From an uncultured Gammaproteobacteria bacterium (GTDB lineage: Bacteria; Patescibacteriota; Microgenomatia; Levybacterales; UBA12049), in assembly GCA_964364105.1 (NCBI GenBank), contig CAYILI010000001.1, forward strand, positions 14,465 to 78,464: a stretch of DNA of 64,000 bases, read 5' to 3'. Within the stretch, counting starts at the first letter, position 1. Each line of letters begins with the position of its first letter. A program made the translations under genes and the position numbers. The notes under the pieces are model-generated. The model saw nothing but the letters and a program-made list of their open reading frames with translations, did no database searches and was not told where the DNA came from. Shown in pieces: positions 10,146-40,728 of this stretch.

Positions 10146-10170
10146 ATTTTACTTCAAACCATATCATTTG

Positions 10171-10192: not shown

Positions 10193-10314
10193 CCATATTC
10201 TTATTTTGCTTTTTTCGCTGAAAAGTGTCAAGGGGCATTTCACAAAAATAGTGTGGTTTGGCAAGCTAATACACTAGATAAAGTAGGCTTATAGGAATTT
10301 ACTCCAAAGAGGAA

Positions 10315-15425: not shown

Positions 15426-15431
15426 TAATAT

Positions 15432-15468
15432 ATGATACTAGGTCACAAACTGTCATGTCAAATTGACA
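15432..15468 (-). promoter_or_regulatory. Candidate sigma70-type promoter (TTGACA-18 nt-TATCAT) giving a near-leaderless mRNA for the 13458-15425 gene
   Basis: The minus strand reads TTGACAtgacagtttgtgacctagTATCATatattaATG. The -35 sits inside the palindrome TGTCAAATTGACA. Confidence 0.3.
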
Positions 15469-15509
15469 AAATGTGATATGGGAGGTTATAAATCAAACTA
15501 AATTGAGAG

Positions 15510-16175: not shown

Positions 16176-16180
16176 ATTTT

Positions 16181-16249
16181 ATCCTGCACTTTCTATCTCA
16201 CTCCTCCCAAACAAAACCCAAACCCTGACTGTAAATAAAAGTGCAGGAT
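16181..16249 (-). promoter_or_regulatory. 12-bp perfect inverted repeat (ATCCTGCACTTT / AAAGTGCAGGAT) spanning the intercistronic gap from the manC-like stop to 6 nt before the sugar-transferase ATG
   Basis: Arms at 16181-16192 and 16238-16249 with a 45-nt loop. The 3' arm on the mRNA contains AGGA (a likely SD) 9 nt before the ATG at 16175. Confidence 0.4.
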
Positions 16250-17323: not shown

Positions 17324-17401
17324 CCCGTTAGAAAACCTCCTTTTCGGCTTTACTATCTAACATATTAAACTTGCTGGTTAAAATAAATTTTCTAACGGGA
17401 T
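17322..17401 (-). repeat. Intercistronic inverted-repeat element J1 (14-bp perfect arms ATCCCGTTAGAAAA / TTTTCTAACGGGAT)
   Basis: mRNA sense: TGAATCCCGTTAGAAAA-(52 nt)-AAAGGAGGTTTTCTAACGGGATGAAGGTAG. The 5' arm abuts the stop of the GT4 gene (17402). The 3' arm carries the SD and ATG of manC (17323). Confidence 0.6.
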
Positions 17402-18553: not shown

Positions 18554-18932
18554 TGTCTTTGAAATTAGGATTGATTATTCTTCTATAGCGAATTTTAGTC
18601 CCTCGAAAATTAACAATAATTGCGAGCGGCAGATTGGTTTGTTTTAAATAGGACAATGCTTGTTTGAAAAATTTTGGAGAATAATGCTGCTGAGCTTTTA
18701 CTTCAAGAATTAATAAATCTTCTACTATGAAATCAAGAAAGTATCTCCCGATACTTTGACCATCATATTCAAGCTTAACTGGAACCTCCCTTTTAAATGA
18801 AAGGCTATTTATATTTAATTCCTTTTCTATCGCTCTCTGGTAGTATTTTTCTAAAAGAGCGGAACCCAGTTCGTTGTGAACTTTAAATAAAACCCCCATG
18901 GTCTTGTAGCTTAATTTCGGAAGAACCAGCAT
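18519..18932 (-). CDS. GxxExxY-family (PD-(D/E)XK-like) small protein
   Basis: LGSALLEKYYQRAIEKEL...FLDFIVEDLLILEVKA...LAIIVNF matches the GxxExxY family pattern. Overlaps the upstream GT4 gene by 35 nt. Confidence 0.55.
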   Translation of the reverse strand: MLVLPKLSYKTMGVLFKVHNELGSALLEKYYQRAIEKELNINSLSFKREVPVKLEYDGQSIGRYFLDFIVEDLLILEVKAQQHYSPKFFKQALSYLKQTNLPLAIIVNFRGTKIRYRRIINPNFKDIDLSERDDEFE

Positions 18933-18953
18933 ATTAGGATATATTCGATTTTA

Positions 18954-20066
18954 TTAGATACTATTCGAAAAAGTATTGTAGACCCGAAGGGTCTGCCGGG
19001 CAGTTTTTTCCCATGAATATTTTTTTACTTGCTCATATCCTTTTTTAATTAACTTCTCCTTTTCCGAAGTTGATAAATTTAAAACGTGTTTCATTTTTGA
19101 AAGTATATCATCACTTTTAAATTGATCAAAATAAATAATTGAATCTCCAAATACCTCTCTATGGACTGGAATATCTGAGGCTAAAACCAAACATTCATTT
19201 TCCAAAGCTTCAAGAGGCGGGAGACTAAAGCCCTCCATCAAGCTTGTTCTCACCAAAGCATTTGCTCCCCTGTAGAGCTCTGACAACTTTTCATCACTTA
19301 CATTTTCTAAGAAAATAACTTTATCATTTCCCATATTTTTCTTAACATGTTCTTTTAGTTTTTTATATAAAAAGTCATTACTCCCGACAAACACCAAACG
19401 AAGTGTTGGATCTTCCTTTACTAAAGATTTAAATGACTCCAGAAGAAGTCCTACATTCTTATGCTGAAAAACATTTCCAACATACAAGAAATAATTTTTT
19501 ATTTTCTCTTCTTTCTTATTGGAAACCTTCATATCATCAGCAGCTTCATAAATCACTTCAATCTTAGACCTATTAGTTTTCAAGGTGTCCATGATATCTT
19601 TTCGTGTAAAGTCAGAAACTGCAATTATTTTTTTCGATACTCGTGCTGCATTTGCGACAACAATTCTATATGCGATTACTTTAAATCCTAAAAGCCAAAG
19701 CGGAAGAGTAGATGAGGCACCGCTTACAAAATGATGAAAAATTAAATCATGAATTGTCACAACATATGGCTTCCTGTATAAAACAGGTATGCTGAAATAT
19801 GGAAAATGCATTAGATCTACTTTTTCTTTTTTTATGATTCCAGGAAATCTTAATTGTTCCTTAATCGAGTGCCATTTAAGATTTGCGGCTACAATCTTCC
19901 ATTCTTTGTTTTTTATTTTTTCTTCAACTTCTTTTTTATCAGACTTTAAAACAAACAAAACATAAGAATTATTTTTATCAATCTTTGATAAATTTATAGT
20001 TAAATTTCTTATGTATCTTCCAACCCCTGTTTGACTCCAAAGCCTTCCATCAATTCCTATTTTCAT
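18954..20066 (-). CDS. Glycosyltransferase family 4
   Basis: MKIGIDGRLWSQTGVGRYIRNL start and a C-terminal EGFSLPPLEALE motif. Confidence 0.75.
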   Translation of the reverse strand: MKIGIDGRLWSQTGVGRYIRNLTINLSKIDKNNSYVLFVLKSDKKEVEEKIKNKEWKIVAANLKWHSIKEQLRFPGIIKKEKVDLMHFPYFSIPVLYRKPYVVTIHDLIFHHFVSGASSTLPLWLLGFKVIAYRIVVANAARVSKKIIAVSDFTRKDIMDTLKTNRSKIEVIYEAADDMKVSNKKEEKIKNYFLYVGNVFQHKNVGLLLESFKSLVKEDPTLRLVFVGSNDFLYKKLKEHVKKNMGNDKVIFLENVSDEKLSELYRGANALVRTSLMEGFSLPPLEALENECLVLASDIPVHREVFGDSIIYFDQFKSDDILSKMKHVLNLSTSEKEKLIKKGYEQVKKYSWEKTARQTLRVYNTFSNSI

Positions 20067-20173
20067 GCTCCTTCGCTCCTTTTCAATATTATAAATCTAA
20101 ACATACCGTTAAAATAGCCGAAACAATTCTAGCTTCGGACGCATGACCCTTCCGTAATTTTAATGAAGGCGGG

Positions 20174-21079
20174 TCATACAGTTTTTTTTCTTTTTGCTAA
20201 AAATAATTTAGTATCAATTCCGAGATATACCAACCAATTAATAATAAAAGGATATTTTCTAGCGTAATGTTTTTTATAGAAAATCTTCATAGTTGAGTAA
20301 AAATATCCCAGTGATTTATTTTTCGTAGACTTATCTGCGCCAGAATTCTCCTGACTATGTTTTTTAATGCCAGAGGAAACTCCCTTAACATGCAATATTT
20401 TTACTTGTGGAACATACATAACTTTAAACCCGGCTTTTTTTGCGCGAAAACACAAATCAATATCTTCTCCATAAAGAAAATAATCTTCATCAAAATATCC
20501 AATTTTCTCAACCATTGATTTTCTAATAAACATAAACGCTCCCACCACACTGTCAACCTCATGGGTTTTTGACATATCTCTATCTGTCAAATGATAAAGT
20601 CTATCGTTTTTAAAAAAGAAATGTAAAAAAGATGCAAGTGGAGTTGGAAAACCCCTGTGAGATGCGGCGTCAATTGAGCCATCCGCCTTCTCAATCTTGG
20701 AGGATGAAATTCCAACGTCCGGGTTTTTTTCCATAAAATCATAAATATATGAAAGGGTCCCACGCGGAACTTCTGTGTCAGGATTTAATGTCAAAATATA
20801 CGGTGAGTCTGATTTTCTTAAAACTAAATTGTGTGCTTTTCCAAAACCTAAATTCTCTTTATTAAAAATAAAATTAAACTGCGGAAATTTTTTCTTAGCT
20901 TTTTCTGCGCTTCCATCAGATGAAGCATTATCGACAATATAAACTTCAAAATCTAATTCTTGCTTGATTTTTCTTAAACTCCCCAAACAGCTAATTAAAT
21001 ATTCGCTAGCATTATAGTTAACAATTGAAATTGTAAGTTTTTTCATATTTCTTATGACACTAGCGTTGCTCCTTTCCAA
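20174..21079 (-). CDS. Glycosyltransferase family 2
   Basis: ISIVNYNASEYLISCLGSL...VDNASSDGS, and a DxD region. Confidence 0.8.
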   Translation of the reverse strand: MERSNASVIRNMKKLTISIVNYNASEYLISCLGSLRKIKQELDFEVYIVDNASSDGSAEKAKKKFPQFNFIFNKENLGFGKAHNLVLRKSDSPYILTLNPDTEVPRGTLSYIYDFMEKNPDVGISSSKIEKADGSIDAASHRGFPTPLASFLHFFFKNDRLYHLTDRDMSKTHEVDSVVGAFMFIRKSMVEKIGYFDEDYFLYGEDIDLCFRAKKAGFKVMYVPQVKILHVKGVSSGIKKHSQENSGADKSTKNKSLGYFYSTMKIFYKKHYARKYPFIINWLVYLGIDTKLFLAKRKKTV

Positions 21080-22235
21080 CTTCAGAATAAACAGAGTCTA
21101 ACTTCGCTGCTATATTTTTCCAGTCAAAATTTTTCTCAATAAATTTTCTACCATTTCTCGAAATTTTTTCATACAGATAATCATCAGTTAAAAGTAATGA
21201 TGTTTTATTTGAAAATTCTTCAGGCTTATCACAAATAATTATTTCTTCGTTTTCTTTTGCTTTTATTCCTTCATTTCCAAGCGATGTTGTTACAACGGGA
21301 GTACCCGAGGACATGGATTCTAAGATTTTAAAATTAGTTCCCCCGCCTACCCTAATGGGTGATAACAAAACATCTGCTTCTTGAAAAATCCTCTCTGTTT
21401 CATTTGGCGCATTTTCATCAAAGATTATGGAATCATCCTTTAAATTTTTTATGCTATCTGGGATTTTCTTCCCAACAATCCAGAGAGTAGTATCGGGATT
21501 TTTTGCGTAAACCTTCGGCCAGATATTTTTAATAATATAAACTATAGAATCTCTGTTTTGGATCCATTTAAAGTCTCCTATAAACAAAACTTTAGTACGC
21601 TTTTCTTTTACATTTTTTTTCATTTTAAACTTCTCTATGTCTACTCCGTTCGGAATAATTTCAACATCTCTACTCATTTCCTTAGCTTCAATTTCTGATA
21701 CTGCAACTAGTCTCGTAGCTTTTTTCCAATATGCTTTTTCCGCTCTTTTTAATTTTAAAACATCAAGATATAAAAGCGGGCGAACGATAATTAAACTTTT
21801 TTTAACAAATTTCTCATAAACTTTATACTCTACATTATGCTCTACTAAAACTACCGGTAAACTTGTCTTGGGTAAATTCTGCATTACATAAAAAGTCTCA
21901 ACGTGGATTAAATTAAACTTTTCTTCGGCAAGTAGTTTTGAGATTATTTTTCTCATTTCCAAGTTTTTATGTCCAGTAATAAGAAACGGGTCTAAAGAAA
22001 AACCAGTCTTAATAATATTTTTTGCGCTCCACTGTTTTTTTCGCTCCGTCGTATAAATTCTTTCACAAATCTTTGAAACCTCATCAATGTCTCTTTGAGT
22101 TTGTGACTCTCTTTTTTCACATACTAAAGTTATTGAATGTTTTTCTGATAGATTTTTTATTAAATTATAAAGACGAATTTGCCCGCCAGAAAAAAGAGGA
22201 AAAGGCAGATATGAAGAAACAATTAATATTTTCAT
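21060..22235 (-). CDS. Glycosyltransferase family 4. The start is more likely the MKILIVSS Met at 22235 than the ORF-track start at 22265.
   Basis: GT4 C-terminal motifs. The Met at 22235 is supplied by the J2 element 3' arm (CTAACGGGATGAAAATATTA). Confidence 0.7.
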   Translation of the reverse strand: MKILIVSSYLPFPLFSGGQIRLYNLIKNLSEKHSITLVCEKRESQTQRDIDEVSKICERIYTTERKKQWSAKNIIKTGFSLDPFLITGHKNLEMRKIISKLLAEEKFNLIHVETFYVMQNLPKTSLPVVLVEHNVEYKVYEKFVKKSLIIVRPLLYLDVLKLKRAEKAYWKKATRLVAVSEIEAKEMSRDVEIIPNGVDIEKFKMKKNVKEKRTKVLFIGDFKWIQNRDSIVYIIKNIWPKVYAKNPDTTLWIVGKKIPDSIKNLKDDSIIFDENAPNETERIFQEADVLLSPIRVGGGTNFKILESMSSGTPVVTTSLGNEGIKAKENEEIIICDKPEEFSNKTSLLLTDDYLYEKISRNGRKFIEKNFDWKNIAAKLDSVYSEVGKEQR

Positions 22236-22299
22236 CCCGTTAGAATTTTCATTTTTCTCAATCATAATTAAATGCTCCCGTAGAAATTACTAACGGGAT
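22234..22299 (-). repeat. Intercistronic inverted-repeat element J2 (ATCCCGTTAG-AATTT / AAATT-A-CTAACGGGAT)
   Basis: mRNA sense: TGAATCCCGTTAGTAATTTC-(loop)-GAAAATTCTAACGGGATGAAAATA. Runs from the stop at 22300-22302 to the probable ATG at 22235. Confidence 0.55.
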
Positions 22300-23742
22300 T
22301 CATGGATTTTTTCTTAAATCAAAAATTATATATTCAGAAGTTTCTTCTAAAACTGTATAGTCCTTTTTAAAATAATCGTCTGCCGGTTTTGGATTAGCAA
22401 TCACCAGATAATCGGTCCCTAAGTTTCTAACCATTATATTTAAATCATCCTGATAACTAGACCATCCTCTTCTTTTAGTCTGGTATAAAAGGGATGTATC
22501 TCCTTCATAATTTGCGATGACTAAGCTGTCCTTAGGCGTTAATCTATCTACTGCCGAACCCGCTGTAATAATTGCACGATTATTTATATTAAAATAATCC
22601 CTAACCTGATACCAGCTGAACATAAATGCAAAACCTAATGTTCCTATAAGAACAATTGGCGCTAGATATTTGTTTGCTAAATTTTTTCCGAGTGTTAATA
22701 AAAAATCTCCTCCAAGTCCAGCAAAAATACAAAGAGTTGGAAGAATAAGTATTTGGTAATAGTCGTGCTGGATGTTTCCCCTAGCTATTACAGTCACATA
22801 AAGAATTGAAGAAACAAGAAACGAATAAAAGAATAAATAACTGGATTTAGTTTTAGCAACTAGTCCCAATACCACTAGAAAAACTCCCCAATATCCCAGT
22901 ATTAGTTTTGAAATTCTTTCAGCAAAAATCCAATTAAAAAATGCCCCTTTAAAACGCATTCCGCCTCCATTAAAAAGCCAATTAGAGCTCGGGATTCCTT
23001 CCGGAAACTGTGTCATCCATTGTCTCCAAAGCATCATAGGAAAAAGGGATGTTATAGCAAAAACCCAAAGATATGGATTCATAATCATTCTCATACCAAA
23101 TGATTGATAAGCAAGATATAGCATTGGGAGTGTAAAAAACATTGCGAATGGTTTTAGTAAAAATGAAGTTAGGGTAAATAAAATTGATAAAAAATAATAG
23201 ATGAATTTTTTATATCTCACTTTTTCCTTAACCCATAAATCAAAAAAATAAATTCCTGCAATAATTGTTGCAGCTGTTGAAGTATCCGGCAAAATTGTTC
23301 TTCCGTAATAAATACTATATGGCAGAAGTGTAAAAACAAATGCTCCCATTAGACCTGCTCTTTCGTTTTGATGTTTTTTTAATATTAGAAAAATAAGTAA
23401 AGCAGTAGAAATAGATGCAAATATTGTTATTAGTCTACCCCATTCTTCAAGCGTAATGACTGGAAATAGTTTATATAAACCTGCCTGGAAAAAATTATAT
23501 ATTGGGAATTCTACAAATCTGTATCCTTGTGGATTATTTAAACCTGACGGAACATTTGATAAATCGTGATATTTAGGATGTAGTAAATCAAATCCATTTT
23601 CTACGAAAATTCTTGAAACTGATGAAGTATCTGCTTGCCGCCAGGAATGCCAATCAGCAATTGGGCTATCTAATTTATAAAGTCTTAGAATAAATCCTAA
23701 AACGAGTATACCTACGAGAAGCACCAGGTGAATTCTTTTCAT
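22300..23742 (-). CDS. Polytopic GT-C-type membrane glycosyltransferase (ArnT/PMT-like)
   Basis: About 12 predicted TM segments, 480 aa, with the aromatic-rich loops typical of the family 39/83 fold. The assignment is by architecture. Confidence 0.5.
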   Translation of the reverse strand: MKRIHLVLLVGILVLGFILRLYKLDSPIADWHSWRQADTSSVSRIFVENGFDLLHPKYHDLSNVPSGLNNPQGYRFVEFPIYNFFQAGLYKLFPVITLEEWGRLITIFASISTALLIFLILKKHQNERAGLMGAFVFTLLPYSIYYGRTILPDTSTAATIIAGIYFFDLWVKEKVRYKKFIYYFLSILFTLTSFLLKPFAMFFTLPMLYLAYQSFGMRMIMNPYLWVFAITSLFPMMLWRQWMTQFPEGIPSSNWLFNGGGMRFKGAFFNWIFAERISKLILGYWGVFLVVLGLVAKTKSSYLFFYSFLVSSILYVTVIARGNIQHDYYQILILPTLCIFAGLGGDFLLTLGKNLANKYLAPIVLIGTLGFAFMFSWYQVRDYFNINNRAIITAGSAVDRLTPKDSLVIANYEGDTSLLYQTKRRGWSSYQDDLNIMVRNLGTDYLVIANPKPADDYFKKDYTVLEETSEYIIFDLRKNP

Positions 23743-23763
23743 TAAGTTTATTTTAATTTATCC

Positions 23764-26700
23764 CTAGGGCATTATCAAATCAGGAGGTGGACCGATTGGC
23801 CTCTCAATCTCAACAACGTTTCCGTCAGGTATAAACCTGAACACTGGATGCGAAAGAGAAAGTCCAGCGCTTTCAAGAGCTGCTTCATCCGATCCATGAA
23901 TAAACACCTTCGCATCGGGATTCTTAAATGCAAACCAGACCGCATCCGGTAGCCCTACTGGAAATACCCATGCTTGCCCATCTTTTGTTGGAACGTTTAC
24001 AAAGTGAATTTGTGTGTCTTTTTGTGACCAATATAATGTGTATTGAGACTCCATAGATATAAAGAATCTTTTTGTTTTATTTCCAGCCTCATGCCAATTA
24101 AATAAAGTGCTTTGAATTTGGATTATGTGAAATAATGCGAAAACCAATAGCGTAATACTCATAAATCCGGCTGAAATCTCCCTGCCGCTTTCTTCAAGAT
24201 ATCCATATGCCTTCTTAAATAGGATTACAAGAATAAAAACCACGCCCATAGATGAAAGGTAACTATATCGGGAAGTTATGTTGCCTAGACCTAAGAACGG
24301 TAAAAGTGAAATTACGAAGAACATAAGACCAAACACAATTATTCTCTTTTCCCATGAGCTAAATCTGTGAGCGAATAATTTGTAGACGACCCAGCCAACT
24401 AAAACAAAAACGGGAATCATGAAAAGAGAAATAATAATATTTTCCCTGGCAAAATTTCTAAGTGACTCGTATAGTGGAAATGACATCGGCCCCAAAATAC
24501 CCAATGAAAGATAACCAAAAATATTGCCCATCAAATTAAATGGAAGATTTAAGGGATCATAACTATAATCGCCGCTAAACCAATGACTCTTAGAAACTAC
24601 CCGAAGGATAAGATATCCTGAAATTGGAAGCCAGAGAATTAAATAATCAAACTTTTTAGGGAGCACTTTTACGCTATCCATAAATCCATCTTTAAACATT
24701 TTATATGCAAGAATTAGAAGTGGTGCTATTACTCCTAACTCATGAAATGTTAACGCAGCGCAAATGGACAATACAGAACCTGCTAAATAATATATTTTCT
24801 TTTTCTCTTCCCAATAGATAAACGCGAGGATCGCTAAAAGTGAAAATACACCGTTAAATAAATGCCCAATTGAAGAAATCCAAAATACATTTTCCAAAGG
24901 TCCGCTTAAAATCAGGAATGTGAAAGCGGCTAATGCCGCTAGCTTAACTTCGCCAAATATCTTTCTTGCTATTAAGAAGAACAATGATGCAGCCAAAAAA
25001 TGCAGGATCAAAGAAGAAAGATGATAAACGACTTGATTTAACCAGAACAATTGATACATCAGATAAAAATAAATTTTCATTCCGGGTCTATAGAAAAATC
25101 CATCTGAATTTGTAAAGTAATTAATAAATAAATTAGGAACAGAACAATTCGTACAATCTGCTGCCCACTTAAGCCATGTAAAATCATCAGCTACGAAATA
25201 ATTTCCGAGCATTGGGGCAAATAAAACAAGACAGAACACGAATAGATATGCTATTACTGCGTAACTCGAGGTAAGTGATTTTTTAATTTCGTTTAATAGA
25301 GTAAATGAATGCCTTCGGTACATTTCAAGGGTGGCAAATGAAATTCCGACTAAGATCCAAAGTATAAATGCTATTTTAGAAGCCTCAAAAACATCAATAA
25401 GTGTCGCATTTAAAAATAGCCCTATAATCCCTGCAGACAACCCAAGAATAAAGCTTTTTGCTAGAGGTGAATCGATATCAGGATATATTTTTCTGGTATA
25501 AATTCCAAGAATCAGGAATAAAAGAAGAAATGAGATAAATCCTAAAATCCCAGTTTCGCCTAATATTCTTAAGTAATTGTTATCAACTGCAAGACTTACC
25601 GATCCATAACCGCTTCCTACAAGCAAGTTTCTTTTAAAAGCATCGATTGCCCTTGGCCATTCACCCTGAAATCTTGTTGTGAAGGACAAATCGTAGGCAG
25701 ATGCCCGCTTTACTATAAAGTTACCCCGGAATATTAAAGCCTGAGCAGAAACCGAAGATTTAAGATCAGTAGGTAATTCTATAAAAAAACTATTTGATCT
25801 TTTTATAACAGGCGACAAATATAAATTCGTATACCCTGTCCCTTGTGGAAGATTTTCCCCATTCGATACATTTACAGCAGTTAATATTACCGGCTCTGGC
25901 GGAATATATTTATATGGTAAAACTATAGTTGAATCGGCAGTAGCAATCTCTTTCTTGCTGTTTTTAATAGCCTCCGCAAGTTGAATTTGATCCTTAACTG
26001 TTCCCTGAAGAACAACTTTTTCTTTAAAGAAATCTTTTTTAACAAATCGCACATGTCCAATTGACTCTCCTGTTATAGCGTCTACCAACACATCAGCCTC
26101 TGAAACAGTACTTTTAAATCTATCAAAAAGAGAAGATTGAAGAATTAGAAATAAGATTCCTCCAACCAAAACTACTGGAATAAGAGCAAAGAGTAATTTC
26201 TTTTTTTGGAAAAGTAAAACAAAACCCAGTGAAATAAATAAAACAAAAAAAGAAACGCGAGACACAGTCATGAGAAGTAGTGCAACTCCCGCAAGAGAAA
26301 TAACAATTAAGGCTATTCTTACAAACCAATTCTTAAGTCCGAAGGCTAAGCTAATAAGAATTGGGATTACCAAGACTAAATATGCAGCCAGGTCGTAATG
26401 GCCCGCAAAAGTTGAAGGAACCCGGGAAAGCGCTGAAAGAGTAATGGGAGTTCCTTTCGCAAACTCCTCGTTCATAGTTAAGAATGCTGGGAAACCTAAA
26501 TATTTTTGACCAAACCCATAAAAAATAACTCCTACCAAAGCTATGATCATAGCTGACACTACATATGGCAAATACTTCTTGTCTTTCATACCATGATAGC
26601 CGATGAAAAATAAACTCATATATTCAATGTGACGAACCAAACTTAAGAAAGCGACATTCGCAAAAGCGTTTGAAATAGTGGGAAAAATAAGAAGAATTCC

Positions 26701-26997
26701 GTGAATCGTAGCTATTGCTCCAATAATCCAGAATATTAAGATAGGAATAGTTAGCGGAGTTTTTAAAGTAATTTTTTTTCTGACAAGTAAAGTTAGCCAC
26801 GAAAGAATCACAAAAAATACTAAAAAGTCCTCAACTCTTATGTAAACCCATGTATTTTGAATATCTAAAAGAGGCAGTTTTGGATAGAGCGGAATAAAAA
26901 TTAGCAAAAAGAGACTCTCGAGAAGTAAAATATTTTCCCAAGTCCATTTAAATATTTTTTTTGTCTTGTTATTTAAAAAGTTCGAGAGCTTGCCCAT
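23764..26997 (-). CDS. 1077-aa polytopic fusion protein: an O-antigen ligase/Wzy_C-like N-terminal half and a GT-C-like C-terminal half
   Basis: The N-half ends with AVDNNYLRILGETGILGFISFLLLF, which matches the H-N-x-YL...E.G..G end of the Wzy_C/O-antigen ligase domain. The C-half has many TM helices and a VADDFTW loop. Confidence 0.45.
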   Translation of the reverse strand: MGKLSNFLNNKTKKIFKWTWENILLLESLFLLIFIPLYPKLPLLDIQNTWVYIRVEDFLVFFVILSWLTLLVRKKITLKTPLTIPILIFWIIGAIATIHGILLIFPTISNAFANVAFLSLVRHIEYMSLFFIGYHGMKDKKYLPYVVSAMIIALVGVIFYGFGQKYLGFPAFLTMNEEFAKGTPITLSALSRVPSTFAGHYDLAAYLVLVIPILISLAFGLKNWFVRIALIVISLAGVALLLMTVSRVSFFVLFISLGFVLLFQKKKLLFALIPVVLVGGILFLILQSSLFDRFKSTVSEADVLVDAITGESIGHVRFVKKDFFKEKVVLQGTVKDQIQLAEAIKNSKKEIATADSTIVLPYKYIPPEPVILTAVNVSNGENLPQGTGYTNLYLSPVIKRSNSFFIELPTDLKSSVSAQALIFRGNFIVKRASAYDLSFTTRFQGEWPRAIDAFKRNLLVGSGYGSVSLAVDNNYLRILGETGILGFISFLLLFLILGIYTRKIYPDIDSPLAKSFILGLSAGIIGLFLNATLIDVFEASKIAFILWILVGISFATLEMYRRHSFTLLNEIKKSLTSSYAVIAYLFVFCLVLFAPMLGNYFVADDFTWLKWAADCTNCSVPNLFINYFTNSDGFFYRPGMKIYFYLMYQLFWLNQVVYHLSSLILHFLAASLFFLIARKIFGEVKLAALAAFTFLILSGPLENVFWISSIGHLFNGVFSLLAILAFIYWEEKKKIYYLAGSVLSICAALTFHELGVIAPLLILAYKMFKDGFMDSVKVLPKKFDYLILWLPISGYLILRVVSKSHWFSGDYSYDPLNLPFNLMGNIFGYLSLGILGPMSFPLYESLRNFARENIIISLFMIPVFVLVGWVVYKLFAHRFSSWEKRIIVFGLMFFVISLLPFLGLGNITSRYSYLSSMGVVFILVILFKKAYGYLEESGREISAGFMSITLLVFALFHIIQIQSTLFNWHEAGNKTKRFFISMESQYTLYWSQKDTQIHFVNVPTKDGQAWVFPVGLPDAVWFAFKNPDAKVFIHGSDEAALESAGLSLSHPVFRFIPDGNVVEIERPIGPPPDLIMP

Positions 26998-27847
26998 AAG
27001 TACTTATGTAATAACTATTATTAGTGATCTTTCCTAATAAGTAAACACTTTTTGCTTTAGTAAAGAGAACTGTTCTAACTATTTTATAACTAATCTGACT
27101 TTTATGTTTTTTATAAAAATAAAGAATTCCTTTATAAATATTTACAATCGCAAAGTTTCTATTACTACTTCCTTGCTCTTTGTGCATTACCAAAATATCC
27201 GGGAAAAAATATGTATCAAATCCGTTCTTCTTAGCTCTATAAGAAATTTCCATATCCTCCATATACATAAAAATGTTTTTATCAAATCCGCCAATCTGCT
27301 CATATACATTTCTAGAAATCATCAAACACGCCCCTGCTACCCAATCAACTTTTGAAATCTTATCTGGACTGCTTTTTAAAAGCCCAAGTCTTTCTCCACC
27401 AAGTATAAGAAGGAAAAAATTAAAAAGATTATAAAATTTTCCAGCTGAAGCCTGAGGAGTACCATCTGGATTCATAAGTCTTCCCCCGAGAATTCCGGTC
27501 TTAGGATTTTCTTTAAGAAAGTCAGCCATCTTAAGAAATCCCCTGTCTTCAACTTTAGTATCTGAATTCAAGAACAATATATAGTCACCTTTAGAATTTT
27601 GGGCGCCTAAATTACACCCACGGCCAAAACCTAGATTTTCTTTGCTCTTAACTAGCTTTATGTGGCTTTTACCTGAAAGATATTTTTCAATGCCTGTTAC
27701 CACTTCTTTTCCTGAGGCATTATCAACAACGACTATTTCAACAACTTCTTCTTTTAGTTCCTGAGCAAATTGCTCTCTAAGTGAATCCAGGCAATCAACA
27801 ATCAAATCCAGCGTGTTATAGCTTAATATTACAATTGAAAGTGTCAT
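26969..27847 (-). CDS. Glycosyltransferase family 2
   Basis: LSIVILSYNTLDLIVDCLDSL...VVDNASGK. Confidence 0.8.
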   Translation of the reverse strand: MTLSIVILSYNTLDLIVDCLDSLREQFAQELKEEVVEIVVVDNASGKEVVTGIEKYLSGKSHIKLVKSKENLGFGRGCNLGAQNSKGDYILFLNSDTKVEDRGFLKMADFLKENPKTGILGGRLMNPDGTPQASAGKFYNLFNFFLLILGGERLGLLKSSPDKISKVDWVAGACLMISRNVYEQIGGFDKNIFMYMEDMEISYRAKKNGFDTYFFPDILVMHKEQGSSNRNFAIVNIYKGILYFYKKHKSQISYKIVRTVLFTKAKSVYLLGKITNNSYYISTYGQALELFK

Positions 27848-28401
27848 TATCTAAACCAAGCAGCTCTACCTAATTTATATTGAGGATCTTTATTTGTACG
27901 AATCCCAATCTCTTTTGCGGGAATTCCACCCACTATCTTAAACTCGCCAACATCTTTGGTAACTACTGCTCCTGCAGCGATAATTGCTCCCTTTCCAATC
28001 TTAACCCCGGGCAAAATTATTGCGCGGGGTCCGATAAAAACATAATCTTCGACTTCTACGGGAGCTGTGACAGCTTTAAATTTTTCATCATTTATGTCGT
28101 GCTCTGAATTATAAATCATGACTCCGGTCGCGATATCTACATGATTTCCAATTTTAAGCTTATCTCTTCCATCCAAAACTGCCCACTCACCAACAATCGT
28201 GTCGTTACCAATCTCAATACCACGAGGATTATATATAGAAAGGGCCATATGAATAGTAGAACTTCGCCCTATTTTCATTCCAAAAACTCTATAAGAAAAG
28301 CGTCTTAAATGGTGACTTGGAATAAATCCAACTATCCAAATTAAAAATCCATTAATAAATTCCAAGATTATCGCATTCATTCTTCTGTTCATCTTATCCA
28401 C
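27847..28401 (-). CDS. Hexapeptide-repeat (LbH) sugar O-acetyltransferase
   Basis: IGNDTIVGEWAVLDGRDKLKIGNHVDIATGVMIY...IGPRAIILPGVKIGKGAIIAAGAVV gives left-handed beta-helix repeats. Confidence 0.75.
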   Translation of the reverse strand: MDKMNRRMNAIILEFINGFLIWIVGFIPSHHLRRFSYRVFGMKIGRSSTIHMALSIYNPRGIEIGNDTIVGEWAVLDGRDKLKIGNHVDIATGVMIYNSEHDINDEKFKAVTAPVEVEDYVFIGPRAIILPGVKIGKGAIIAAGAVVTKDVGEFKIVGGIPAKEIGIRTNKDPQYKLGRAAWFR

Positions 28402-29530
28402 GTCCTACCTCCTCTAAAACCGCTAAAGTCTCCCTAGTAGATTTTTCCCAGGAAAACTTTTCTACTTGCTTCTTACCTTTTTCAATAAGCTGCTTCTTAA
28501 GATTATCATCTTCTAATAATTTTTTCATTTTTTCCGATATGTCACTTACGCTATTTGGATCTACATAAAGCGCTGCGTCTCCTCCCGCCTCAGGAAGACT
28601 TGAAACATTACTGGTTATTACTGGCGTTCCATAATTCATGGCTTCAAGAACTGGGATTCCAAATCCTTCATAAAGACTTGGAAGAATAAAAAATTCTGCG
28701 TTTTTATATAAAACTGGAAGCTCTTCGTCCGTTACATTTTCTAAAAACAAAACTTTGTCTTTTACATTATATTTTTCAGGAGCGTTAAGTATTTCCTCAT
28801 ATTTCCATCCCCGTCTTCCAACGATAATCAAACTAACGTCAGTCTCAATTTTTGAATATGCTTCAATAAGACGAGTAATATTTTTTCTTGGTTGAAGAGT
28901 CCCAACAAATAATATGTATTTTCCATTAATTCCAAACTTCTTTCCTAATTTGTCCATACTTAATACACGATACTTACTACTTGATACTTTATTGATTCCC
29001 GGGTAAATTACCTCTACTTTTTCCTCTTTTACTCCGTATTCTTTAATTATATCATTCTTACTTGACTCACTAATTGTTAAGATTTTCATAGATTTTTTTG
29101 CAGAGTAACTAGTCCATTTCTTAAGCTGAATTAAGTCTTTTTTCTTAAAAAGCTCTGGAAAATATAAGTAAGAAACGTCTAAAATTGAAACGACAGATTT
29201 CTTAGGTGCGAAGATTGGTAAATAATGAGTTGGGGTAAAAAAAACATCAAGCGATCTATCTTTTAATAAATTTAAAGATAGAGAAGTAATTGTCCACATT
29301 TTTCTAGAAGGGAGAATTCTGTATTTCCATGTGTCAGTTGCTTTAGGTAAATCATTCGTAGGGCTTTGAGGTAAAAATATTTCGTAGTTATTTTTAACAT
29401 CAATTTTTGCAAGATTTTTTAATAGCTCAAAACAATAGACACTACTCCCAACTCTATTTGGAAGATTTGTAGTTTTGTTATAACCAAATCTCGGAACTAC
29501 CGCTTCGTAACCATTAATTCCAATTTTCAC
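28394..29530 (-). CDS. Glycosyltransferase family 4. Its GTG start is supplied by the end of GIY-YIG element copy 1.
   Basis: EGFGIPVLEAMNYGTPVITSNVSSLPE. The first codon is GTG at 29528-29530, which overlaps the stop of the GIY-YIG ORF. Confidence 0.75.
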   Translation of the reverse strand: MKIGINGYEAVVPRFGYNKTTNLPNRVGSSVYCFELLKNLAKIDVKNNYEIFLPQSPTNDLPKATDTWKYRILPSRKMWTITSLSLNLLKDRSLDVFFTPTHYLPIFAPKKSVVSILDVSYLYFPELFKKKDLIQLKKWTSYSAKKSMKILTISESSKNDIIKEYGVKEEKVEVIYPGINKVSSSKYRVLSMDKLGKKFGINGKYILFVGTLQPRKNITRLIEAYSKIETDVSLIIVGRRGWKYEEILNAPEKYNVKDKVLFLENVTDEELPVLYKNAEFFILPSLYEGFGIPVLEAMNYGTPVITSNVSSLPEAGGDAALYVDPNSVSDISEKMKKLLEDDNLKKQLIEKGKKQVEKFSWEKSTRETLAVLEEVGRG

Positions 29531-29784
29531 CCTGTTAAATAAGATTTAAGTCTATTTCTTAAAAACATCTTTCCATGATATGTTTTAAGATATTTTTCTC
29601 TATGAGTGGCATCTTGCTGATTTAGACAAGCTTCATAGTAAATGAGCTTAAACTTCCCCCTTTCTTTAGTGGATGCAACTTGTTTATTTTCATGCTGCTT
29701 AAATCTTAATTTTAAATCCTTGGTATAACCAGTATAAAACATTTTATCTTTGTCGGATCTAAGAATATAAATGTAGTAAAACAT
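29527..29784 (-). CDS. Stand-alone GIY-YIG nuclease (85 aa), copy 1
   Basis: MFYYIYILRSDKDKMFYTGYTKDLKLRFKQHENKQ contains the GIY-x(10)-YIG core. The C-terminal YLTG is encoded by the TIR. The ORF-track 126-aa version adds an unlikely N-extension. Confidence 0.8.
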   Translation of the reverse strand: MFYYIYILRSDKDKMFYTGYTKDLKLRFKQHENKQVASTKERGKFKLIYYEACLNQQDATHREKYLKTYHGKMFLRNRLKSYLTG

Positions 29785-29811
29785 TCTGGATTTAAAATTA
29801 TTTAACAGGGT
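29529..29811 (-). mobile_element. Miniature TIR element copy 1 (283 bp) encoding a GIY-YIG nuclease
   Basis: Perfect 14-bp terminal inverted repeats: ACCCTGTTAAATAA at 29529-29542 and TTATTTAACAGGGT at 29798-29811. A second copy lies 1.8 kb away. Confidence 0.75.
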
Positions 29812-30346
29812 AAACTGCAGGATAAATAACTTTAACTTTAGATGCTTCAATACCCAAAATTTCTTCAATATCTTTTTTACTCGACTCAGAAATCGTAAAA
29901 ATAACATCTGACTCTTTTTTGAGCCATTTAATTTTCCTTTTTTGTGTATCTATTATTTTCCTGGCAGTTTCTTCTGGATTCTTGTAAACAATAAGGTCAT
30001 ATATAATGGTCGCCTTCTTAGCTTTTTTTGTGGGTGGCTCTGTCCAGTCAGATGTAATAAATAAATCAACCGGACCAATCAGCCATTCGATAGGTAAAAT
30101 GTGCAGCCTGTTCCAGAGTAAATCTAATAATAATGGCGGGAATTTAAATTGTTTAATTTTTACATTTTTAGGAATTGAATGAAAATTGAAAATTGAAAAT
30201 TGAAAATTTCTTCTCATTGATGAGAAGAATAGAATATATTCATTTTTTTTGTCTTCTTTAAGTAAATTTTCAACTAAATTTATCAGGTAGTTTGATACAC
30301 CAGTTTTTGAATAGACAACCTGACTAACATCAATTCCAATTCTCAT
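29798..30346 (-). pseudogene. N-terminal half of a GT4 glycosyltransferase, truncated after ...KVKVIYPAV by a stop inside the TIR of GIY-YIG element copy 1
   Basis: MRIGIDVSQVVYSKTGVSNYLINL is a typical GT4 start. The reading frame ends YPVK-TAA inside the TIR at 29798-29812. The C-terminal catalytic domain is absent. Contains a (GAAAATT)x4 repeat. Confidence 0.6.
30181..30208. repeat. Heptanucleotide microsatellite (GAAAATT)x4 inside the truncated GT4 fragment
   Basis: Read directly: gaaaattgaaaattgaaaattgaaaatt, preceded by a degenerate unit. Confidence 0.9.
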
Positions 30347-31119
30347 AAATTAATTCTAGCAGTATTTAGCTTTCTCGCGTCCACCCGCTCCATAAATTTT
30401 CCTTTTAGAAATTCTGGTAAATCAGAAGGATCACCGCTAAATCCTAACCTCTCTGAAAATTCTCTGCCAATTCTATCCCCAACTTCTCTTTGAATTTCAT
30501 ACAAAGACCTGCCTCCAAACTTTGGTTTATAACTATTACTAAAACCCGCATTTCTTTTAGCCCTTTCTGGATCCTCCTTATTTCCATCCCATCCTCTTTC
30601 TAAATTATCAAAACGCTCGCTAATTCTAACTGGCTTAGTATCCGAAAGCATCGCATCCACAAACCATACGATTTTTTGCTCGTCATCAATTGGCCCTGAA
30701 ACATCATCTGGAACATTTGCACCCGTGAGCTGGATCGTTGCCTCATCTATTCCTAACTCTCTTAAAAGTTGGAAATCTCTATCTCTAATATCATCAAAAG
30801 TTTGCAAACTTAGTGTTCCTGATTCTGCTGCCGCTCTTTGGGCAGTCTGTTCATGCTTTTTATACCAATCATGTAAGATTGCAGCGTGTACGACTCTTTT
30901 CCTTTTTTCTGGCAATAGGTCTAACTGTGCAGCTAAAATATCTGCAAACACACCCGCACCCAAGCAATGCGACGAAACATTTCTCCAGACCTCGGGCCTC
31001 CTACCTAGTGTTTCACCGGTTTTATGAGGCTTAAATGCACTGAGGTGAGAAGCTGCAAATTCAGCCATATATGCTACTTTCGCCCTATCTAAATTTTGCG
31101 GTTCAGTACTATTTTCCAT
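30343..31119 (-). CDS. HD-domain phosphohydrolase-like protein
   Basis: H...HD metal-binding pattern (SSHCLGAGVFADIL ... VHAAILHDWYKKH). The gene is clearly GC-richer (about 42%) than its flanks. Confidence 0.55.
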   Translation of the reverse strand: MENSTEPQNLDRAKVAYMAEFAASHLSAFKPHKTGETLGRRPEVWRNVSSHCLGAGVFADILAAQLDLLPEKRKRVVHAAILHDWYKKHEQTAQRAAAESGTLSLQTFDDIRDRDFQLLRELGIDEATIQLTGANVPDDVSGPIDDEQKIVWFVDAMLSDTKPVRISERFDNLERGWDGNKEDPERAKRNAGFSNSYKPKFGGRSLYEIQREVGDRIGREFSERLGFSGDPSDLPEFLKGKFMERVDARKLNTARINL

Positions 31120-31345
31120 GCTTAAATCTTGAATCTTTGATAATCGATAATAAAACAGCGATTACGAAAAAAACAAAAGAAAACCAAACTAAGCGCTGGG
31201 CTGTAAAAAATATCCATTGGGCAAATAAAGGAATTGAAAGAACCAAACACGAAAGCCCTGCAATCACAAAAAATTTAGGATCTCTTTTTATCAAGAGCAA
31301 AAGAAAAACAATTATAAACAATAAATCCTGTGGTTTAAAATCCAT
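31109..31345 (-). CDS. Small membrane protein (78 aa, 2-3 TM)
   Basis: Hydrophobic ORF. Its ATG is 2 nt downstream of the GIY-YIG copy 2 TIR. Confidence 0.35.
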   Translation of the reverse strand: MDFKPQDLLFIIVFLLLLIKRDPKFFVIAGLSCLVLSIPLFAQWIFFTAQRLVWFSFVFFVIAVLLSIIKDSRFKHGK

Positions 31346-31603
31346 TTACCCTGTTAAATAAGATTTAAGCCTATTTCTTAAAAACATCTTTCCTAAGTAT
31401 GTTTTAAGATACTTTTCTCTATGAGTTGCATCTTGTTGGTTTAAACAAGCTTCATAGTATATAAGCTTAAATGGCCCCCTTTCTTTAGTTGATTGAACCT
31501 GCTTATTCTCATGCTGCTTAAATCTTAATTTTAAATCTTTTGTGTAGCCAGTATAAAACATTTTGTCCTTATCTGATCTTAGTACATATACGTAGTAAAA
31601 CAT
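31346..31603 (-). CDS. Stand-alone GIY-YIG nuclease (85 aa), copy 2
   Basis: MFYYVYVLRSDKDKMFYTGYTKDLKLRFKQHENKQVQSTKERGPFKLIYYEA.... Differs from copy 1 at 5 of 85 residues. Confidence 0.8.
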   Translation of the reverse strand: MFYYVYVLRSDKDKMFYTGYTKDLKLRFKQHENKQVQSTKERGPFKLIYYEACLNQQDATHREKYLKTYLGKMFLRNRLKSYLTG

Positions 31604-31629
31604 ACTAATTTAAAATTATTTAACAGGGT
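31348..31629 (-). mobile_element. Miniature TIR element copy 2 (282 bp) encoding a GIY-YIG nuclease
   Basis: The same 14-bp TIRs, at 31348-31361 and 31616-31629. About 85% nt identity to copy 1. Confidence 0.75.
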
Positions 31630-31633
31630 GAAT

Positions 31634-32560
31634 CTAGCTGGAATATTTTAATAGAATTTTAGATTCGTTTTCGCTTTTACTTGAGATATTGAGAACTAAA
31701 TCCGCGATAAGACCAGTAAGTCCGACTTGGAGCCCAGCTATGATAAGAAGCATTCCTAAAACCAGCAAAGGCCTTGTCCCAATCGCCTCACCCAAAAAAT
31801 GCAGGATTGATAGATATAAGGAAATCAAAATCCCCAAACCAAATAAGATAGCTCCTATAAATCCGAAAAAATGAAGTGGTCGCTTACCGTATTTGCTTAA
31901 AAAAATCATGGTCATCATATCAGGCATCTGCGTTAATACTTTAAGAGCTCCATATTTACTCTTACCCCAGCGTCTTTCATCATGAACGACTGCAACTTCT
32001 GTTACCCTAAATCCTTCCTGTGCTACTAAAAGCGGTATGAATCTATGCATTCCACCATATAAATTTACCGACTTTGCTGCATCACTGGTGTAAAGTTTTA
32101 GTCCGCAATTATAATCATGAAGTCTTACTCCCCAAAACATTGAAGCGACTAAGTTAAATGCTTTTGAAAATATAATCTTGGCAAAAGAATCTTTTCTTTC
32201 TTTTCTCCATCCGGAAACCATGTCATATCCTTCTTTATGTTTCTCGATCAATTTGTGGACTTCTGAAGGCTTGTCCTGAAGATCAGCATCCATTGTAACT
32301 ATCAAATCCCCCTTGGCTTTTTGGAAACCAAAAGTTAAAGCTTCTGCTTTACCATGATTTCTTCGGAAAGAGTAAACCCTAATATTTGAATCTTTCTTCT
32401 CAAGATCCCTGATCAAACTCAATGTATTATCAAATGACCCATCATCAATAAAAATTATTTCGTATTCCTTTGATAGAATTTTTGCGTGCTTTAGGAGCTC
32501 TTCATAGAAATGAAGAATACTCTCCTCCTCATTAAAAACTGGCACTACATAACTAATCAT
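31634..32560 (-). CDS. GT2 polyprenyl-phosphate glycosyltransferase (DPM1/GtrB/ArnC-like, with C-terminal TM helices)
   Basis: ISYVVPVFNEEESILHFYEELL...EIIFIDDGSFDNT and a two-helix C-terminal anchor. Confidence 0.8.
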   Translation of the reverse strand: MISYVVPVFNEEESILHFYEELLKHAKILSKEYEIIFIDDGSFDNTLSLIRDLEKKDSNIRVYSFRRNHGKAEALTFGFQKAKGDLIVTMDADLQDKPSEVHKLIEKHKEGYDMVSGWRKERKDSFAKIIFSKAFNLVASMFWGVRLHDYNCGLKLYTSDAAKSVNLYGGMHRFIPLLVAQEGFRVTEVAVVHDERRWGKSKYGALKVLTQMPDMMTMIFLSKYGKRPLHFFGFIGAILFGLGILISLYLSILHFLGEAIGTRPLLVLGMLLIIAGLQVGLTGLIADLVLNISSKSENESKILLKYSS

Positions 32561-34630: not shown

Positions 34631-34668
34631 AAACTTCTAATGTTATAATGTAAGAAATTTAAATCCTG

Positions 34669-36519: not shown

Positions 36520-36525
36520 TAGGAT

Positions 36526-40712: not shown

Positions 40713-40728
40713 TAACAACATATAAAAT

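Follow-up and report, generated by a model that had tools for sequence, protein, structure and literature searches.

WaaL and Wzy enzymes are classed as GT-C glycosyltransferases of subclass B, and the GT66 oligosaccharyltransferases are recognized by their WWDYG motif. For comparison with the protein described here, one of the closest known enzymes is the O-antigen ligase WaaL (CAZy GT121; PF04932) from Cupriavidus metallidurans (Cm; PDB 7TPG/7TPJ), which uses a catalytic His. Its R191 (R215 in the Escherichia coli enzyme, Ec) binds the phosphate of undecaprenyl-PP, with R265 as the second conserved Arg at the diphosphate, and an Asp in place of the WaaL His is the state of Wzy-type polymerases (clan GT-C1, GT125-129) and of the SEDS proteins RodA/FtsW (GT119), not of O-antigen ligases (PMC10920833). 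The GT-C_A group comprises ArnT (GT83), PMT/PMT_2 (GT39), ALG3/9/12, AftA/AftD/Emb and the GT-C component of GtrA/GtrB/GT-C systems (PMC11127046). An O-antigen-ligase-type membrane domain that shares a single polypeptide with a glycosyltransferase of the same pathway, as in our case, is known from Brucella WadA, described as a 'bifunctional O-antigen ligase' (PMC9938171). In WadA, however, the partner is an N-terminal, soluble cytoplasmic glycosyltransferase, which puts its active site across the membrane from that of the ligase domain, whereas the fusion analyzed here carries a C-terminal integral-membrane GT-C with both sites predicted to face outward. As fusions, the two share no homology. 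Our literature search found no publication on the combination of Wzy_C and PMT_2, or on O-antigen glycosyltransferases of CPR bacteria.

Architecture of the two-module protein

Within the 64,000-nt stretch of DNA that was analyzed (the window), the complete fusion gene spans positions 23764..26997 on the minus strand, as do all features of this gene and its operon given below. According to the ORF list of the window, it runs from an ATG start to a stop codon at 23764-23766 without internal stops and encodes 1077 aa; conservation over the full length agrees with this reading. The product is one conserved polypeptide in which a 12-TM WaaL/Wzy-fold (GT-C_B) module is followed by an 11-TM GT-C_A module. 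The two-domain fusion claimed in the initial annotation is therefore real, being a single intact ORF that is conserved in relatives. As WaaL/Wzy enzymes themselves belong to GT-C_B, it is a tandem of both GT-C subclasses rather than a 'ligase plus GT'. Hydropathy and positive-inside analysis gave approximately 23 TM helices for the whole protein, with the N-terminus inside and the C-terminus outside, and the AF2 model reached a pLDDT of 79 and a pTM of 0.78. Both modules are connected by a short, basic, cytoplasmic linker (residues 560-577, 25267..25320; YRRHSFTLLNEIKKSLTS), which lies between TM12 and TM13, contains four K/R and is conserved. The polar residues conserved throughout the family are located in outer loops: R247, R442, D472, D604/D605, R637, H659 and E702 are all outside by the positive-inside pattern and are kept in at least 93% of the fused members, down to 32% identity. 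An NCBIfam scan of the protein returned no match, and PDB sequence searches with the full-length profile or with a distant fused member (P0126) gave nothing relevant; for this family, such searches were uninformative, and only the comparison of folds led to relevant matches.

The N-half (residues 1-559, 25321..26997) folds like WaaL, with 12 TM helices and a large outer loop close to its C-terminal end. Structurally, it is far nearer to WaaL than to the SEDS proteins, and no Wzy polymerase structure was among the top structural matches. Its proposed assignment to Wzy_C turned out to be borderline: unlike WaaL, the fusion scores below the Pfam cutoff (PF04932; 18.8 bits, E=0.0015, gathering cutoff 31.7 bits), and the match covers residues 430-491 only. 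The fused relative P0126 passes this cutoff with 35.8 bits over the whole model, as does a split orthologue (L086) with 32.3 bits, and many members of a more divergent clade had been annotated with PF04932 in advance.

The N-half had been described as ending in a characteristic WaaL-type motif. The motif is indeed present, beginning at residue 470 (AVDNNYLRILGETGILGF), and is followed by three further TM helices, which places the end of the N-half at approximately residue 559; it is not canonical, as an Asp replaces the catalytic His. In the hmmsearch alignment of this element (D472-NNYLRILGETGILG486, 25540..25584), the model string DndylRllgetGilG was aligned to HNDIVEAASTTGIPG, and hhalign placed D472 on Ec H338 (Cm H313). 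The spacing from the D/H to the GxxG is 11 residues in the fusion and in both the Cm and Ec WaaL. D472 is invariant in the fused family and also retained in an unfused orthologue (L087). Moreover, comparison with the WaaL of E. coli and C. metallidurans by hhalign and hmmsearch identified equivalents of both conserved WaaL arginines, albeit with weak alignment scores. R247 (T244-V-S-R247, 26257..26268), at the outer end of TM7/8, aligns to Cm R191/Ec R215. R442, in a second conserved helix (T440-T-R442-F-Q-G-E-W447, 25657..25680), corresponds approximately to Cm R265/Ec R288; W447 aligns to Cm W269, by which R442 is one residue off register with R265. These equivalences come from low-scoring local alignments with single-comparison E values of about 1e-3. 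A profile of residues 432-565 was misaligned against full-length E. coli WaaL, and the alignment worked with the motif regions and the C. metallidurans segment.

Where O-antigen ligases proper (GT121) have their catalytic His, the N-half has D472, and D472, R247 and R442 together present the combination of Wzy-type polymerases, namely an Asp/Glu at the WaaL His position with one or two Arg (PMC10920833). His versus Asp is no strict divide between ligases and polymerases. Nevertheless, 'O-antigen ligase' is a misnomer for the N-half, given the Asp at the catalytic position and the gene complement of the host group, which is reported to be Gram-positive-like, with families shared with Gram-positives (PMC6744442). 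O-antigen ligases proper act on a lipid A-core acceptor, which implies an LPS-producing diderm host; no LPS genes were seen in the window. In view of the invariant His-to-Asp change, hundreds of CPR proteins probably carry a misleading name in the databases, 'O-antigen ligase family protein'.

The annotated outer-loop insertion of about 170 aa was recovered as well. The large outer loop comprises residues 287-473 (187 aa), of which approximately 125-150 aa are extra compared to WaaL. This surplus corresponds to a beta-rich insertion (residues 294-441, 25675..26118) between R293 and the R442 helix, which WaaL does not possess. The distance from R293 to R442 is 149 aa in the fusion and varies from 97 to 165 aa across the fused family.

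The C-terminal 500 aa or so had been proposed as a separate multi-TM module, and the best reading of this part is now 11 TM helices and a tail of 111 aa. The membrane part, the C-half (residues 578-966, 24100..25266), has the arrangement of the conserved N-terminal TM module of GT-C_A enzymes and is distantly related to ArnT/PMT/PMT_2. At the start of its first outer loop, an acidic pair (A603-D604-D605-F-T-W608, 25174..25191) is situated outside, 6-7 residues past TM13, and is invariant in two sets of relatives (A1 and A2) and in the divergent fused set; the DDF.W motif also occurs in genuine standalone relatives of the C-half. We take this to be where GT-C_A enzymes carry their catalytic or metal-binding acidic residues, and by analogy D604/D605 are putatively catalytic. 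The tail (residues 967-1077, 23767..24099) is a small alpha/beta domain by AF2 secondary structure, predicted outside the membrane with a pLDDT of approximately 85-90, and has conserved W968, P1003, W1010, PVG1013-1015 and W1021. The GT66 enzymes PglB/AglB/STT3 instead carry a large C-terminal domain, compared to approximately 110 aa here, and no sequence similarity of the fusion to GT66 was detected.

In contrast to the known GT-C_A enzymes, the C-half and its close family are fused to a WaaL-like module and possess motifs of their own, DDF(T)W and FFYRPG; nothing in Pfam or the PDB, PMT_2 and ArnT included, matches them by sequence. PMT_2 (PF13231; gathering threshold 26.1 bits) did not match the fusion, nor any of 18 C-halves of the family, which yielded noise only when scanned one by one against Pfam at E<=5, and a PDB search with the C-half profile gave no sequence match. 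The relatives of the C-half are very numerous, filling about 39,000 representative clusters with a cutoff of E<=1e-3, and the close ones escape Pfam. Only one remote standalone relative (P0244) passes PMT_2, with 29.6 bits. The C-half as a paralogue of the adjacent PMT_2 gene was rejected, their similarity being undetectable (BLASTP best E 0.48); furthermore, neither half matched any other ORF of the window by phmmer.

The surrounding glycan operon

The fusion gene belongs to a same-strand glycan operon of 16 genes (13458..32560), delineated by Pfam scans and by synteny in 80 species genomes and the clade at approximately 32% identity, down to which it is conserved. Its position is fixed, adjoining recO. 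The operon opens with an ArnC-like GT2, an ORF with a GT4 N-domain, a GT4, a membrane hexapeptide acetyltransferase, a GT2, the fusion and a PMT_2 gene, followed by GT4, GT2, GT4, GT4, a ManC-like NTP transferase, Bac_transf and DUF4012. In total, it holds seven cytoplasmic GT4/GT2 genes and further GT-C genes beside the fusion. Directly upstream of the fusion, a soluble GT2 glycosyltransferase (26969..27847; Pfam Glycos_transf_2, 9e-26) is found in 67 of 74 loci; its stop and the start of the fusion gene share 29 nt, as in the closest relative. The directly downstream gene encodes a 480-aa GT-C of the PMT_2 family (22300..23742; 31.8 bits, above the Pfam cutoff), and PMT_2 holds this place in 72 of 73 loci.

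Two further genes bear on the lipid carrier. The Bac_transf initiating phosphoglycosyltransferase (15510..16175; Pfam 3e-63), which is kept in the operon, presumably makes the undecaprenyl-PP-sugar primer. The membrane-anchored GT2 (31634..32560) is of the ArnC/GtrB type of polyprenyl-phosphate sugar synthases, matching ArnC (2e-42) and GtrB (1.5e-31) over nearly the full length by phmmer against the PDB, and has two C-terminal TM helices. Of the 80 loci, 33 have it, with the upstream flank too short at many. This enzyme is a candidate supplier of a lipid-P-sugar donor, and it could serve other GT-C genes of the locus instead of the C-half. Of the parts of a three-component (GtrA/GtrB/GT-C) system, the ArnC/GtrB homologue and GT-C genes are present, and no GtrA-like flippase gene was identified among the ORFs of at least 100 aa at the locus. 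A Wzx-like gene lies in the window (58277-59368) but outside the conserved operon. Wzy-type polymerases make a repeat-unit polymer and work with a Wzx flippase and a chain-length regulator (Wzz/PCP). The operon showed no Wzz-like co-polymerase, Pfam gave no Wzz match in any window ORF of at least 100 aa, and a search of the window for an LCP-type partner was negative, so that neither the polymerase nor the ligase route is documented here as complete.

Proposed function and competing readings

Judging from the sequence, we consider it fairly likely that the fusion is a bifunctional integral-membrane glycosyltransferase with both active sites facing outward, acting late in a lipid-carrier-dependent surface-glycan pathway of Microgenomates (CPR/Patescibacteria). 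Cytoplasmic enzymes would assemble an undecaprenyl-PP-linked oligosaccharide, which would then be flipped outward. The N-half would bind the undecaprenyl-PP-glycan through R247 and R442, with D472 as the base that activates the hydroxyl of the acceptor sugar, and the outcome would be either polymerization of repeat units or transfer of the glycan en bloc; the Asp in place of His speaks for a reaction of the Wzy type, with a sugar as the acceptor. Through its D604/D605 loop, the C-half may add a single sugar from a polyprenyl-monophosphate-sugar to the same glycan or its acceptor. Systems of a GT-C and a polyprenyl-P GT that work outside the membrane provide a precedent (PMC11127046). The fusion would hold both outer-face steps together at a 1:1 stoichiometry. 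The coupling of polymer transfer and elongation suggested previously is plausible as a predicted consequence of the fusion, with the refinement that single-sugar addition from a polyprenyl-monophosphate donor is more likely for the C-half than elongation of a polymer.

The eukaryotic ALG/OST logic consists of cytoplasmic GT4 steps, a flip, GT-C steps that depend on lipid-P-sugars, and transfer en bloc. On this model, the N-half might be a true ligase/O-oligosaccharyltransferase like WaaL, PglL or WsaB, which transfers the finished undecaprenyl-PP-glycan en bloc to an S-layer protein, pilin or lipid after the C-half, the PMT_2 protein and the other GT-C enzymes have decorated the flipped glycan. 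Overall, we regard this alternative as possible but rather doubtful. A bolder version, to which we assign a small chance, sees the fusion as the terminal assembly enzyme of an envelope glycoconjugate that is conserved in structure and defines the Microgenomates lineage: the C-half and other GT-C enzymes that depend on lipid-P-sugars would extend the flipped glycan, the Asp-dependent WaaL-fold module would receive it within the same polypeptide and transfer it en bloc to protein, lipid or wall, and the beta-rich insertion, specific to the family, would bind the acceptor or the glycan. If true, this would be a physically channeled two-site GT-C machine of a type without earlier description.

It seems quite improbable, in contrast, that only one half is catalytic while the other has degenerated into a scaffold that holds the substrate, for example by binding the carrier lipid or in a chaperone-like manner. 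An Asp at the His position is the normal catalytic state in the Wzy and SEDS families (PMC10920833). The complete sets of charged outer-face residues of both halves (R247, R442 and D472; D604/D605, R637 and E702) are kept, where catalytic residues are expected, down to 32% identity, and the unfused orthologue L087 retains both genes with both motifs.

Returning to the favored reading of two active modules, the natural tandem of GT-C subclasses offers a ready hypothesis on which outer-face steps are coupled, and the fusion makes a cryo-EM target in which a WaaL/Wzy-type enzyme and its partner form a single chain. CPR/Patescibacteria account for a large share of bacterial diversity, and to our knowledge their envelope chemistry is essentially unknown. 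The class-wide conservation of the protein and its operon down to approximately 32% identity and the fixed place beside recO speak for a core surface glycan of conserved structure and against a variable antigen.

Spread of the fusion and its split versions

Homologs with the same fusion are widespread. Of 80 species-level genomes from Levy-, Roizman- and Gottesmanbacteria, 76 encode the fusion as one ORF of 1040 aa or longer; at the remaining four loci, contig ends interrupt three, and the last is split. Full-length versions (1049-1080 aa) at 55-87% identity make up more than 120 protein clusters, which derive from different projects and assemblers, and a second, more divergent clade (32-48% identity) is likewise fused at approximately 1000 aa. 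The initial annotation called the fusion unusual, which applies to the literature only; Microgenomates have it as a rule, in at least 226 species genomes.

Split versions do exist, with lengths of 120+920 aa (L074), 528+516 aa (L086, whose parts overlap by 11 nt within an A-rich run), 191+836 aa (L088) and 526+467 aa (L087). Even so, it can be practically dismissed that the long ORF arose by faulty assembly or sequencing, that it is a pseudo-fusion of adjacent genes, or that a frameshift joined two ORFs, the refuting case named in the initial annotation, in view of the 76 intact loci from independent species genomes, the full-length clusters of varied origin, the conserved linker, and the fact that the L088 split is itself a frameshift within a conserved loop, for which it was rejected as an unfused state. 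Six apparent standalone C-halves (P0121, P0125, P0128, P0129, P0140 and P0162) were rejected as truncated gene calls, since they start inside the last helices of the N-half.

Judged by its sequence, L087 is the only split version that looks like a genuine two-gene state. In this distant relative, the 526-aa Wzy_C-like gene and the 467-aa GT-C gene are separate, translationally coupled genes of the same operon that overlap by ATGA. Both motifs are kept, the equivalent of D472 lying within VDSSYI, and the break point falls exactly at the linker of the fusion. The operon is ancient, and the fusion unites a WaaL/Wzy-like and an ArnT/PMT-like surface-sugar enzyme, for which other relatives have neighboring genes.

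Two GT-C modules in one polypeptide

The fusion gene (23764-26997, minus strand) is a single open reading frame of 1077 codons with an ATG start and uniform base composition. The first 29 nt of the frame coincide with the last 29 nt, stop included, of the GT2 gene upstream, as they do in the closest relative. According to hydropathy, the positive-inside rule and AF2 secondary structure, the protein is predicted to run from 12 TM helices through a short, basic, cytoplasmic linker (residues 560-577) to 11 further TM helices and a 111-aa, extracytoplasmic C-terminal domain. The N-half also has a predicted outer loop of 187 aa (residues 287-473).

Sequence methods were nearly blind to both halves. 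In the Pfam scan of the fusion, Wzy_C matched residues 430-491 only and scored 18.8 bits, below the 31.7-bit cutoff; Pfam gave no match for the C-half, NCBIfam gave none for the fusion, the family profiles found none among PDB sequences, and 0 of 18 C-halves of the family matched any Pfam model. In the fold comparison, by contrast, the next block of matches consisted of GT-C_A enzymes (ALG12 18.1, STT3B 17.0, Pmt4 16.8, Pmt2 16.6, AglB 16.1, ArnT 15.7, PglB 15.3, AftA 15.2 and AftD 14.7), with which Foldseek agreed. Two sequence bridges support the domain assignments: Wzy_C was passed by the distant fused member P0126 (35.8 bits, entire model covered) and by the split orthologue in locus L086 (32.3 bits), and PMT_2 by P0244, a standalone relative of the C-half (29.6 bits). 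The Wzy_C assignment of the initial annotation is supported through relatives that pass the cutoff; the query's own score stays below it. In the terminology of Alexander and Locher, as cited by PMC10920833, the fusion places a GT-C_B and a GT-C_A module in tandem.

Active sites and proposed mechanism

The query was aligned with 30 fused members at identities down to 32%. All polar residues conserved in at least 93% of this alignment lie in outer loops, namely K40, R54, D57, N176, E177, E178, K181, R192, H200, Y201, D202, T244, S246, R247, R293, D436, T440, T441, R442, W447, G461, G463, D472, R477, E481, N530, D535, E538 and K541 in the N-half, and D604, D605, W608, R637, P638, H659, E702, W706, R799, N821, N825 and Y911 in the C-half. 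WaaL, the closest described system for the N-half, served as a ruler, with R191/R265/H313 of the C. metallidurans enzyme corresponding to R215/R288/H338 in E. coli. In the family profiles, R247 aligns on R191, while W447 aligns on W269, which leaves a one-residue register shift between R442 and R265. Furthermore, DNNYLRILGETGILG aligns on HNDIVEAASTTGIPG, which puts D472 at the catalytic His position, and the spacing from this residue to GxxG is 11 residues in the fusion and in both WaaL proteins. The scores are low (E about 1e-3 for a single comparison), yet the alignments are collinear and motif-exact.

The two arginines of WaaL bind the diphosphate of undecaprenyl-PP, and His is the O-antigen ligase state of the catalytic position, with Asp or Glu found in SEDS and in Wzy-type polymerase families of the same clan (PMC10920833). 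With D472 in the place of His, the N-half is WaaL-like in fold and Wzy/SEDS-like at the catalytic residue. The motif beginning at residue 470, which had been called a characteristic signature of Wzy_C/WaaL-type domains, has the right shape but the wrong key residue.

In the C-half, for which ArnT/PMT/ALG-type GT-C_A enzymes are the closest described systems, D604 and D605 are invariant and lie 6-7 residues past the first helix. This is where GT-C_A enzymes such as ArnT, PMT and PglB have their acidic residues for catalysis or metal binding, and by analogy D604/D605 may have the same role.

The analysis establishes the folds, conserved residues, topology, operon and Rosetta-stone state, whereas the substrates, step order and acceptor are inferred. 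The best-supported model, which we consider probable, is a lipid-PP-oligosaccharide route with two outer-face steps carried out by the fusion. Cytoplasmic enzymes would assemble an undecaprenyl-PP-linked oligosaccharide, which would then be flipped outward. The N-half would bind the lipid-PP-glycan via R247 and R442, and D472 would activate a hydroxyl of the acceptor sugar for polymerisation or en bloc transfer. The ArnC-like GT2 would supply a polyprenyl-P-sugar donor, from which the C-half would add a sugar. Three-component GtrB/GT-C systems are the functional analogue of the C-half (PMC11127046). Fusion of the two modules would enforce proximity and 1:1 stoichiometry. The main rival, a distinctly less likely reading in which the N-half acts as a genuine ligase or O-oligosaccharyltransferase on an ALG/OST-like route, is favoured by the large fixed set of glycosyltransferases and by the absence of Wzz (the window yielded neither an LCP ligase nor Wzz nor a second Wzy_C gene); the missing catalytic His speaks against it. 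That one domain is dead is quite improbable, as both sites are conserved.

Origin and conservation of the fusion

Comparison across clusters and loci refutes the idea that the long frame is an artefact, which we regard as barely conceivable. More than 120 protein clusters with 55-87% identity are all full length, in 76 of the best 80 loci a single ORF reaches at least 1040 aa (of the other four, three run off their contigs and one has a split gene), and a second clade of ~1000-aa proteins with 32-48% identity is also fused. The single polypeptide proposed initially is thus genuine, and joining of two ORFs by a frameshift is excluded. Relatives were present in at least 226 genomes in a scan of species-representative genomes, the named ones being Roizman-, Levy- and Gottesmanbacteria. 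In some relatives (L088, 7420-10511; L074) the gene is broken by frameshifts, reflecting either assembly errors or pseudogenes.

At E<=1e-3 the C-half profile matched 38,895 representatives, of which 9,076 remained at E<=1e-10 and 134 at E<=1e-30; the top 150 matches were a mixture of fused and shorter proteins. Some short ones were rejected as unfused genes, because these gene calls are truncated and begin within the last helices of the N-half. In others the N-terminus is genuine and leads into TM1, and the DDF.W and FYRP motifs recur. The closest unfused cases lie in the same operon, directly behind a separate Wzy_C-like gene. In locus L087, the upstream protein (526 aa) terminates just past TM12, and the GT-C gene (467 aa) begins with an ATGA overlap, preceded by a ribosome-binding-like site, GGAGAGAGG, and has a normal Met-Lys-Lys-Arg N-terminus. 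Their identity to the N-half and C-half is 37% and 32%, respectively, and VDSSYI and DDFIW are retained. These features point to a genuine two-gene, translationally coupled state. L086 is ambiguous, its split falling within an A-rich run; the split in L088 was discarded as a two-gene state, being a frameshift inside the conserved NEEFAKG...GHYD loop. Because the unfused halves adjoin in the same operon, the fusion is derived from adjacent operon partners, which is classical evidence that both activities work together.

A literature search found no published description of a WaaL/Wzy-GT-C_A tandem, and database labels read 'O-antigen ligase family protein' or 'hypothetical'. The only bifunctional O-antigen ligase found in the literature, Brucella WadA, combines a cytoplasmic GT with a ligase domain and is unlike the fusion in architecture (PMC9938171). 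Mechanistically, joining the two domains is no surprise in itself. The interest of the fusion lies in class-wide conservation, the His-to-Asp state, an orphan insertion domain and a fixed operon, which together mark a core, unstudied envelope glycan pathway of the CPR.

A conserved glycan operon

The operon spans about 13.4-32.6 kb (13458-32560, minus strand) and comprises 16 genes. It starts with an ArnC/GtrB-like polyprenyl-phosphate sugar synthase (ArnC E=2e-42, nearly full length), followed by a stand-alone GT4 N-domain ORF, a GT4, a membrane-anchored hexapeptide acetyltransferase and a GT2 (genes 2-5), the fusion and a PMT_2 GT-C (6-7), GT4, GT2, GT4 and GT4 (8-11), and a ManC-like nucleotidyltransferase, a Bac_transf initiating phosphoglycosyltransferase and a DUF4012 protein (12-14). 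Past the operon lie recO and a class II tRNA synthetase gene, then a mraZ-mraW-PBP-mur cluster. The order is retained in essentially all 80 loci and in the ~32%-identity clade, with PMT_2 directly downstream of the fusion in 72/73 loci and GT2 directly upstream in 67/74. The whole recO-adjoining 16-gene operon keeps its order across Levy-, Roizman- and Gottesmanbacteria (window; L004-L085), and such conservation is unusual for a surface-glycan locus. In one sub-clade (L011-L014, L020, L024), the two soluble GT2 genes orthologous to 26969-27847 and 20174-21079 are absent together, which suggests that they act on the same optional decoration.

Three minus-strand ORFs within the operon are missing from most relatives and are likely selfish or mobile insertions: a GIY-YIG nuclease (29527-29907, Pfam 2.3e-15), a PD-(D/E)XK ORF (18519-18932, 1.5e-30, also in L064) and an HD-like ORF (30343-31119, weak Pfam match below cutoff). 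The GT4 N-domain ORF (29798-30346, minus strand, 182 aa) holds only the N-terminal Glyco_transf_4 domain; it is separate in nearly all loci, mostly 166-208 aa long and upstream of the full GT4, and may represent a split GT4. The DUF4012 gene (13458-15425, minus strand, 655 aa, one N-terminal TM helix) is always last, behind Bac_transf, and a Wzz-like or attachment function was considered. CPR and Gram-positives are enriched in DUF4012, which also occurs in a Bifidobacterium CPS/EPS cluster (PMC6744442). The divergent relative L085 carries a LytR_C-domain gene (10098-10796, minus) on the opposite strand in mid-operon, which may hint that the product is attached to the wall.

Glycan synthesis occupies about 50 kb of the 64-kb window, with a Wzx-like flippase and additional GT-C genes in its variable, lower-GC part. 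In the variable region (32588-45078), GC falls to 26-28% (34-44 kb), and four large multi-TM ORFs (680, 616, 783 and 756 aa) gave no significant Pfam match; two showed weak AftD-type GT-C similarity, and all four are probably further uncatalogued GT-C enzymes. A second PMT_2 GT-C (55937-57271), the Wzx-like flippase (58277-59368, Polysacc_synt_3) and a YfhO/PTPS_related GT-C (60412-62061) lie towards the far end of the window (55937-62061), all on the minus strand.

Many GenBank TPA MAG records with this CPR operon (L004-L012 and others, CAY*/CAZ*) are titled 'uncultured Gammaproteobacteria bacterium'. Since gene content and the nearest named relatives, Levy- and Roizmanbacteria, do not fit it, this title looks like a placeholder or a wrong label.
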